Made by a program: the position numbers and the translations under genes. The notes beneath the pieces were generated by a model. The model had not been told where the DNA came from, ran no database searches, and saw nothing but the letters and a program-made list of their open reading frames with translations. From Escherichia coli (lineage in GTDB: Bacteria; Pseudomonadota; Gammaproteobacteria; Enterobacterales; Enterobacteriaceae), in the NCBI RefSeq assembly GCF_003334335.1, contig NZ_QOWQ01000003.1: DNA of 64,000 nucleotides; one strand, 5' to 3'. Positions 11,262 through 29,632 of this stretch are shown here, piece after piece. The number at the start of each line of letters is the position of its first letter. Within the stretch, counting starts at the first letter, position 1.

Positions 11262-12374
11262 ATGGTAAATGTTCGTCAGCCCAGGGATGTCGCACAAATT
11301 CTGCTTTCGGTGCTGTTTTTAGCCATCATGATTGTGGCATGTCTGTGGATTGTTCAACCCTTTATTCTCGGCTTTGCATGGGCCGGTACGGTGGTTATCG
11401 CCACCTGGCCGGTATTGTTACGTTTGCAAAAGATCATGTTTGGCCGCCGCTCTCTCGCCGTTCTGGTGATGACGCTGTTATTAGTGATGGTGTTTATCAT
11501 CCCTATTGCTTTGCTGGTTAACAGTATCGTCGACGGCAGCGGCCCGCTAATTAAAGCCATTTCCAGCGGTGACATGACGTTACCCGATCTGGCGTGGCTT
11601 AATACCATTCCGGTGATTGGCGCGAAGCTGTATGCAGGCTGGCACAACTTGCTGGATATGGGGGGGACGGCGATCATGGCGAAAGTCCGCCCTTATATTG
11701 GCACCACCACCACCTGGTTCGTTGGGCAGGCGGCGCATATCGGGCGCTTTATGGTGCATTGTGCGCTGATGCTTCTCTTCAGTGCCCTGCTGTACTGGCG
11801 CGGTGAACAGGTGGCACAAGGCATTCGCCATTTTGCAACCCGTCTGGCAGGCGTTCGCGGAGATGCCGCCGTGCTGCTGGCGGCACAGGCTATCCGCGCG
11901 GTGGCGCTGGGTGTGGTGGTGACGGCGTTAGTACAGGCAGTGCTTGGCGGTATCGGCCTCGCCGTATCCGGCGTACCTTATGCAACGTTGCTAACGGTGT
12001 TAATGATCCTCTCCTGCCTTGTCCAGCTTGGCCCGTTGCCGGTACTGATTCCGGCGATTATCTGGCTCTACTGGACTGGCGATACCACCTGGGGAACGGT
12101 ATTGTTAGTGTGGAGCGGTGTGGTTGGCACGCTGGATAACGTCATCCGCCCAATGTTAATTCGCATGGGTGCCGATTTACCGCTGATCCTGATTCTCTCT
12201 GGCGTTATTGGTGGTTTGATTGCTTTCGGGATGATCGGTCTGTTTATTGGTCCGGTTCTGTTAGCCGTTTCCTGGCGTCTGTTTGCCGCGTGGGTGGAAG
12301 AAGTCCCGCCGCCGACGGACCAACCGGAAGAAATTCTCGAAGAACTTGGCGAAATCGAGAAACCGAATAAGTAA
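11262..12374 (+). CDS. ydiK: AI-2E / PerM family inner-membrane transporter YdiK
   Basis: 370-aa strongly hydrophobic ORF with acidic C-terminal tail; matches YdiK. Confidence 0.9.
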   Translation: MVNVRQPRDVAQILLSVLFLAIMIVACLWIVQPFILGFAWAGTVVIATWPVLLRLQKIMFGRRSLAVLVMTLLLVMVFIIPIALLVNSIVDGSGPLIKAISSGDMTLPDLAWLNTIPVIGAKLYAGWHNLLDMGGTAIMAKVRPYIGTTTTWFVGQAAHIGRFMVHCALMLLFSALLYWRGEQVAQGIRHFATRLAGVRGDAAVLLAAQAIRAVALGVVVTALVQAVLGGIGLAVSGVPYATLLTVLMILSCLVQLGPLPVLIPAIIWLYWTGDTTWGTVLLVWSGVVGTLDNVIRPMLIRMGADLPLILILSGVIGGLIAFGMIGLFIGPVLLAVSWRLFAAWVEEVPPPTDQPEEILEELGEIEKPNK

Positions 12375-12559
12375 TTTCTCATCAGGCGGCTCTGCCGCCT
12401 GATTGTTAACCACCGCTAATTGATATTTGCTTGCTCTTCCCCATATTTTCCTGCTTACCGCCATTCAGCTGGTAGTACCTGTCGCAAATTCTTTACAGTT
12501 TTTAAACTAATGAGACGAATCTGATCGACGCAAAAAGTCCGTATGCCTACTATTAGCTC

Positions 12560-12666
12560 ACGGTTATAAATCAACATATTGATTTATAAGCATGGAAATC
12601 CCCTGAGTGAAACAACGAATTGCTGTGTGTAGTCTTTGCCCATCTCCCACGATGGGCTTTTTTTTA
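12560..12666 (+). ncRNA. rprA: RprA small regulatory RNA (activator of rpoS translation)
   Basis: Sequence ACGGTTATAAATCAACATATTGATTTATAAGCATGGAAATCCCCTGAGTGAAACAACGAATTGCTGTGTGTAGTCTTTGCCCATCTCCCACGATGGGCTTTTTTT matches RprA as I recall it, ending in a hairpin plus T-run terminator; sits between ydiK and ydiL as in K-12. Confidence 0.85.
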
Positions 12667-12802
12667 ACATTTTTCCGCTTCGCTACCTCGCCCCTCACTC
12701 TTTCCAATAATGTTGCACAAGATACTGTGACTCTCTTCAAGCCGTCAGCAGGCTGATAATGTTATTTATATTTTATTGTTTATTTCATGCAGCCATTACA
12801 CG

Positions 12803-13159
12803 ATGAACGCTTATGAACTCCAGGCACTCCGCCATATTTTTGCCATGACTATTGATGAATGCGCGACCTGGATTGCCCAGACCGGTGACAGTGAAAGCTG
12901 GCGTCAGTGGGAAAATGGCAAGTGTGCCATTCCTGATCGTGTAGTCGAGCAACTGTTGGCTATGCGTCAGCAAAGAAAAAAACATCTTCATGCCATCATA
13001 GAGAAAATAAATAACCGCATCGGCAACAACACCATGCGTTTTTTCCCCGACTTAACCGCATTTCAACGAGTCTACCCTGATGGCAATTTTATTGACTGGA
13101 AGATCTATCAATCGGTAGCTGCTGAATTATATGCACACGATCTGGAGCGGCTTTGTTAA
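12803..13159 (+). CDS. ydiL: Small protein YdiL (DUF1870-like, unknown function)
   Basis: ORF track gives 127 aa; start set at internal MNAYELQALRH to give 118 aa. Confidence 0.8.
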   Translation: MNAYELQALRHIFAMTIDECATWIAQTGDSESWRQWENGKCAIPDRVVEQLLAMRQQRKKHLHAIIEKINNRIGNNTMRFFPDLTAFQRVYPDGNFIDWKIYQSVAAELYAHDLERLC

Positions 13160-29402: not shown

Positions 29403-29632
29403 AAATATATTTTTTTACTTTTTAAGACTGATCCCAGCGTTGCGCAAATCTGCTCTCTTCGACAATTTCCACATAAACCATCGGTATAAACGAAACCATA
29501 AAAATGAAATGCTGTTTTCATAAAAAATAAAATTGAAGGTTCATTTTATAAACCAGACATAACGTTCTACGCTTCTGTGCGTTTTTAATTTATGCTTTCA
29601 TAGAATTATGTCTGCATCACGGGAAGAACAAA

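Follow-up and report, generated by a model that had tools for sequence, protein, structure and literature searches.

The small RNA RprA of Escherichia coli K-12 and Salmonella reportedly goes back to the work of Majdalani et al. in 2001 and 2002. It belongs with the core-genome activators of rpoS, of which DsrA answers to low temperature and ArcZ to the Arc system, whereas the signal for RprA is Rcs. Activation of rpoS by RprA through an anti-antisense mechanism has been published (PMC3783183; PMC7547250), as have the activation of ricI and the repression of csgD, dgcM/ydaM, hdeD, fepA and narP at their translation-initiation regions, in the case of narP through RprA nucleotides 30-70 (PMC9262595; PMC11979758). 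RNase E processing yields a shorter form, RprAproc, consisting of the last 47 nt (PMC9262595; PMC6202311), and targets as well as the processed form are also documented in PMC6202311. For the promoter, a 23-mer of Salmonella PrprA, described as -33 to -53, has been co-crystallised with RcsB (PMC7913699). In what follows, the dependence on RcsB and Hfq, the processing and the effects on targets are taken from the literature, Hfq binding, RNase E processing and regulation in trans all being published (PMC9262595, PMC6202311, PMC11979758), while the computations made here cover the identity and coordinates of the gene, the anatomy of its promoter, its conservation, the covariation of its structure and the place of its complementarity to rpoS.

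The DNA analysed, referred to as the window, is a stretch of 64,000 nucleotides from E. coli, which we scanned as a whole with Rfam 15 at gathering thresholds. The RprA model RF00034 matched at 12560-12667 on the plus strand with 118.5 bits against a gathering score of 70 (E = 1.6e-16), and it did so over its full length (model positions 1-108 of 108 in cmscan), far beyond what chance would give. A sequence-only reading of the window had recognised RprA at this place and proposed a covariance-model search together with a comparison with the annotated gene; the search bears the assignment out by a wide margin, and the comparison leads to the same bases. Many E. coli chromosomes match a 421-bp query (12380-12800) at 100% identity, the RefSeq feature beneath the match is 'rprA: antisense sRNA RprA', as fits the claim of a known regulatory RNA gene, and the rprA feature of strain ER1709 maps exactly onto 12560-12667 of the window, the coordinates of the Rfam match. 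The interval of 12480-12666 that had been proposed for the gene does hold the RNA, but its first ~80 bp (12480-12559) are promoter, the RNA starting only at 12560. The proposed length of about 106 nt is a fair one, given an RNA of 105-108 nt depending on where it ends within the T-run at 12658-12665, in which the 3' end in vivo is expected to lie. As had also been stated, the gene is flanked by ydiK (11262-12374, plus strand), a 370-aa ORF for an AI-2E family transporter that RefSeq annotates as ydiK, and by ydiL (12803-13159, plus strand, likewise annotated in RefSeq), which provide the upstream and downstream context and lie outside the sRNA gene.

Taken together, we regard it as almost certain that 12560-12667 (+) is E. 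coli rprA, an independent transcription unit with a weak, RcsB-activated promoter, whose product is an anti-antisense activator of rpoS. Of 5426 complete E. coli genomes, 5424 contain the locus, as judged with the 421-bp query. Because it sits where every E. coli genome has rprA, the finding is correct but ordinary; the gene is already known, and its presence here adds no new biology. A textbook sRNA gene and the logic of its promoter were nevertheless recovered correctly by a scan blind to ORFs, and the present analysis places the promoter elements, the boundary of processing and the region that pairs with rpoS at exact coordinates. The surroundings are equally familiar, the whole 64-kb window aligning colinearly, at 99.96% identity, with the suf-ydi-pps-pheST-katE-chb region of E. 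coli ER1709, with 20 mismatches and 6 gaps in total. The first indel relative to ER1709 lies at ~29416-29450, in the ppsA-ppsR intergenic region, and the ER1709 record flags aroH and thrS as frameshifted.

Upstream of the RNA, a likeness to an RcsB box had been pointed out, and it holds up in detail. With 12560 as +1, the 14-mer TGAGACGAATCTGA at 12511-12524 (+), that is, at -49 to -36, fits the consensus TN(G/A)GAN4TC(T/C)NA and is identical to the 14-nt core of the Salmonella PrprA DNA that was co-crystallised with RcsB (PMC7913699); over -53 to -33, the window and the crystallised fragment differ in a single base. In the window as a whole, the consensus has 3 matches where 2.57 would be expected, hence no enrichment, and the box is credible because of its position and its conservation, not because of the motif match. 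For conservation we fetched 120 loci from different Enterobacterales species, all containing the invariant RprA 22-mer described below; among the 116 that were usable, 111 have an RcsB box upstream at near-constant spacing, where chance would account for ~0.002 per locus. The Edwardsiella loci (L021, L024) are without a strict box. As to the two further matches in the window, one lies at 29423-29436 and the other beside a second sRNA, with which it is discussed below.

The RcsB box directly abuts a -35-like hexamer, TCGACG (12525-12530, +), which agrees with TTGACA in four of six positions and is separated by a 17-bp spacer from the -10 hexamer TACTAT (12548-12553, +). Across 106 unique promoters, G-33, A-32 and C-31 of the -35 element are conserved in 88-99%, and T-12, A-11, A-8 and T-7 of the -10 element in 92-95%. 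A generic promoter scan of the window missed the rprA promoter because it matches only 8 of 12 consensus positions, a degree of match that would be expected of a promoter relying on an activator. The conserved layout supports a predicted dependence on RcsB, with the box placed just upstream of the -35 element.

This promoter anatomy also bears on the question of whether there is a separate gene here at all, or whether the element merely belongs to the 3' UTR or the terminator of ydiK. The RNA lies on the same strand as ydiK and 186 nt downstream of it, and ydiK stands directly upstream in the same orientation in 82 of 86 Enterobacterales rprA loci, so that a shared transcript might come to mind. 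The ydiK gene has, however, a hairpin of its own, a perfect 10-bp stem formed by ATCAGGCGGC tct GCCGCCTGAT at 12381-12403, 7 nt past the stop codon and without a T-run, which presumably marks or stabilises the end of the ydiK transcript and parts it from the rprA promoter. Moreover, the conserved RcsB box, -35 and -10 elements keep a fixed distance from the 5' end of the RNA in 111 of 116 loci, and the Rfam model and the RefSeq annotation both begin at 12560. An untranslated tail of ydiK is thus, in our estimate, exceedingly improbable as an account of the whole element.

On the other side, the RNA might be taken for a cis-acting leader or attenuator of ydiL, since it ends, as attenuators do, in a terminator and is located on the same strand, 136 nt upstream of the ydiL start codon. 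Yet ydiL is the downstream neighbour of rprA in no more than 9 of 105 loci, in contrast to the RNA, which is conserved across Enterobacterales, and it is for this reason that we do not regard RprA as a ydiL leader; the full-length match to a family of trans-acting sRNAs argues in the same direction, and we give this possibility next to no credence. The gene orders suggest that the synteny of ydiK and rprA is ancient and that ydiL is a lineage-restricted neighbour.

The fold of the RNA was assessed from its own sequence and from homologues. The minimum free energy (MFE) of the 107-nt RNA is -25.8 kcal/mol (z = -2.9 against dinucleotide shuffles). On an alignment of 31 diverse homologues from 31 species, the MFE-derived structure has 87.7% of its cells paired, compared with 36-43% in slid controls; nine pairs are changed on both sides, and none of 500 shuffles reaches the covariation score. 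Two of the predicted elements are supported by covariation. The first is an AU-rich 5' stem-loop (RprA nt 3-32; 12562-12591, +), whose core helix is 84% paired across the 31 species with four compensatory positions. The second is the Rho-independent terminator (12638-12665, +), which the sequence-only reading had named and which a terminator scan detects as well: a 7-bp stem with five GC pairs (12638-12657) followed by eight T (12658-12665), its helix 99.5% paired with three compensatory positions. The two small central hairpins lack such support, one being invariant and the other poorly paired: the hairpin inside the 22-mer never varies across species and is hence uninformative on pairing, and for the small hairpin of CAUGG with CCCUG the pairing is no higher than 62-72%. 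In place of the short 4-bp helix with which the Rfam consensus begins, and which reaches just 59% pairing over the species compared, we adopted the better supported, longer MFE stem. The product of the gene would be an Hfq-binding RNA of ~106 nt, with a stem-loop at the 5' end, a single-stranded stretch in the middle and, at the Hfq-binding 3' end, a terminator that runs into poly-U.

The same substitutions speak to a third possibility, that the element encodes a small protein. The necessary frames are mechanically present, namely a four-codon ORF within RprA (AUG GAA AUC CCC UGA, 12592-12606) and two antisense ORFs at 12455-12577 and 12564-12740. The AUG is, however, absent from homologues in Pantoea, Erwinia and Rahnella, which retain the rpoS-pairing sequence CCCCUGAG, and the substitutions preserve helices, not codons. 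Because its AUG is not conserved outside Enterobacteriaceae, the four-codon ORF is very unlikely to be coding; the antisense ORFs (40 and 58 aa) are without support. A protein product of any of these frames strikes us as almost certainly illusory, and the element is better read as the structured RNA RprA.

Between its hairpins, RprA has a central single-stranded region (nt 32-62; 12591-12621, +) that is complementary to the rpoS leader. For the duplex calculations, the leader was taken from an annotated E. coli genome and the inter-hairpin region (RprA nt ~31-62) was used as the query, since the duplex of full-length RprA with the leader was a meaningless 104-nt pairing with huge loops, equalled by 55 of 500 shuffles. 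The best duplex of the inter-hairpin region falls on leader positions -118 to -93 at -22.3 kcal/mol, an energy that is not exceptional, being matched by 86 of 1000 shuffled queries and 26 of 556 decoy targets. In the MFE fold of the leader, this same segment, -118 to -93, pairs with -18 to +6, a stretch that includes both the AUG and, at -12, the AGGA of the Shine-Dalgarno sequence. The modelled geometry is therefore consistent with anti-antisense activation, albeit no proof of it: the central region of RprA would pair with the upstream arm of the inhibitory leader hairpin and free the ribosome-binding site, and more RpoS would be synthesised. By pairing at translation-initiation regions, RprA would also act as a repressor of csgD, dgcM/ydaM, hdeD, narP and fepA.

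The 3' part of the gene corresponds to RprAproc, which maps to 12619-12665 (+). These 47 nt are made up of the 22-mer ATTGCTGTGTGTAGTCTTTGCC (12619-12640), a further 17 nt that finish the terminator hairpin and the eight T; RNase E would release them as a 3' form that itself has regulatory activity. The 22-mer, which occurs once in the window with 0 occurrences expected, is found without a single change in at least 120 Enterobacterales species (loci L002-L121), in a range that extends from Escherichia to Yersinia, Proteus, Photorhabdus, Edwardsiella and Arsenophonus. The 5' half of RprA diverges, and in Morganellaceae, Yersinia, Hafnia and Serratia it has become unrecognisable, including the rpoS-pairing region.

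Apart from rprA, the Rfam scan returned several other RNA elements in the window. The sRNA gene rydB lies at 6896-6956 (-), between sufA and ydiH (81.6 bits against a threshold of 50), and is without annotation in the RefSeq record that we compared. Three nucleotides upstream of its 5' end, the sequence TAAGAATAATCTCA (6959-6972, +) matches the RcsB-box consensus, probably by chance, since 2.6 such matches are expected per window. A match to STnc540 at 37341-37499 (-; 67.4 bits against 38) overlaps the 3' end of ihfA and the ihfA-btuC spacer and may represent an sRNA derived from a 3' UTR. ES036 (CssrF) matches at 58407-58449 (+; 55.5 bits against 37.6), ~90 nt downstream of katE, and the Phe leader of the pheST operon at 41340-41464 (-; 75 bits) coincides with the RefSeq 'Phe leader region' and pheM.

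The 22-mer is also found outside of rprA. In a scan of IMG/VR, it occurs exactly in at least 120 viral contigs of temperate phages (L126-L245), in copies that comprise the 22-mer and a terminator without the 5' half of RprA. Their likeness to RprA breaks off 2-5 nt before the 22-mer begins, which is where RNase E processes RprA. Among the matches listed, ydiK is present in none of the viral contigs and the RcsB box is absent from 116; the copies listed occur in ~30 unrelated upstream contexts, and 61 of the 64 unique phage versions among them continue with a hairpin and a U-run. In 92 of the 98 phage loci listed, the copy is preceded on its own strand by a homologue of a cI-type or HTH repressor, whose end lies 230-1777 nt away, and early-left recombination genes are located downstream of the phage copies.

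Three deposited E. coli phages (ON470579.1 and relatives) carry the module, in each case unannotated. They were found with a phage-derived query, and a megablast search with the E. coli rprA region against deposited phages gave no match, a word-size artefact, since the shared stretch amounts to 22 nt and a variable terminator. One variant of the phage module recurs in 150 of 5426 complete E. coli genomes, where it is likewise without annotation. Two lambdoid prophage immunity regions with the 22-mer (L085, L105) come from genomes that also have the canonical rprA; with these, and with the phage-plasmid L125, a further locus, L246, is listed among the phage-borne modules.

L125 is a P1-like phage-plasmid, the Enterobacter plasmid pJBIWA008_2 (NZ_CP074151.1), with genes for a pacase, a terminase and a late promoter activator. 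Its RprA-like element, at 3947-4049, scores 63.4 bits, which is just under the Rfam threshold, and has a GC-rich, unrelated 5' half; a tRNA-like match with a 62-nt insert lies ~300 nt downstream of the element. NZ_CP085744.1 (H35) is grouped with this phage-plasmid. Except for this phage-plasmid, we set the other plasmid matches aside, as they were mostly mislabelled chromosomes or chromosome-sized records. Five Klebsiella pneumoniae records labelled as plasmids (H28-H32; 110-144 kb, typed as non-mobilizable) carry a full rprA with its promoter at 92.7% identity, and may be chromosomal fragments or hybrid replicons.

How might phages have come by these copies? An att origin, with the copies serving as attP, seems disfavoured for most loci, which lie beside repressor and recombination genes and not at contig ends. 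There is, however, one att-like case. In Phytobacter massiliensis (NZ_HE578945.1), the full rprA gene has its 3' end repeated as a 69-nt copy that lies ~8.07 kb further downstream, on the other side of a phage remnant (L046 873-894, L047 1236-1257); the insert contains an ORF resembling a phage tape-measure gene, and the duplication looks like attL and attR sites left by integration into the 3' end of rprA. As for the majority of the copies, it is conceivable, although we rather doubt it, that the 47-nt module is an autonomous regulatory unit which temperate phages of Enterobacterales have copied to the 3' end of their repressor (cI) operon. From sequence, we infer for these copies both expression and a function as mimics of processed RprA; lysogens would then make such a mimic independently of Rcs signalling. 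We found no description of phage copies of processed RprA in the literature searched, a silence that is weak evidence of novelty. If the reading is true, widespread, unannotated prophage copies would allow lysogeny to rewire a part of the regulon of RprA, and the activity of RprAproc, which is still unexplained, could be approached through them.

For the chromosomal gene itself, the picture that emerges is a conventional one. RprA would be made when the Rcs envelope-stress phosphorelay is on: an RcsB dimer on the box at -49 to -36 would activate the weak sigma-70 promoter with its -35 element TCGACG and -10 element TACTAT. The logic of this promoter thus leads from Rcs envelope stress through RprA to RpoS and to biofilm and conjugation targets.

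Compared with the RprA of E. coli K-12 and Salmonella (RF00034), we see no difference; the feature in the window is that gene itself. Its sequence is identical to annotated E. coli rprA, its RcsB box is the same as in the crystallised Salmonella promoter, and the neighbours, the terminator and the rpoS-complementary region are shared, as the three-hairpin layout would be. DsrA and ArcZ resemble RprA in their dependence on Hfq and in their anti-antisense action on the same upstream arm of the rpoS leader hairpin (PMC3783183; PMC7547250), but are unrelated in sequence and are encoded at other loci, under the control of other signals. For the phage-borne modules, the nearest precedent is StxS, an sRNA of Shiga-toxin phages which, like RprA, acts at the same site of the rpoS leader (PMC7547250). 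StxS, made from PR'-tR', is a late-promoter by-product for which no sequence shared with RprA is described; the phage modules, by contrast, share the last 47 nt of RprA and are located downstream of a repressor gene.
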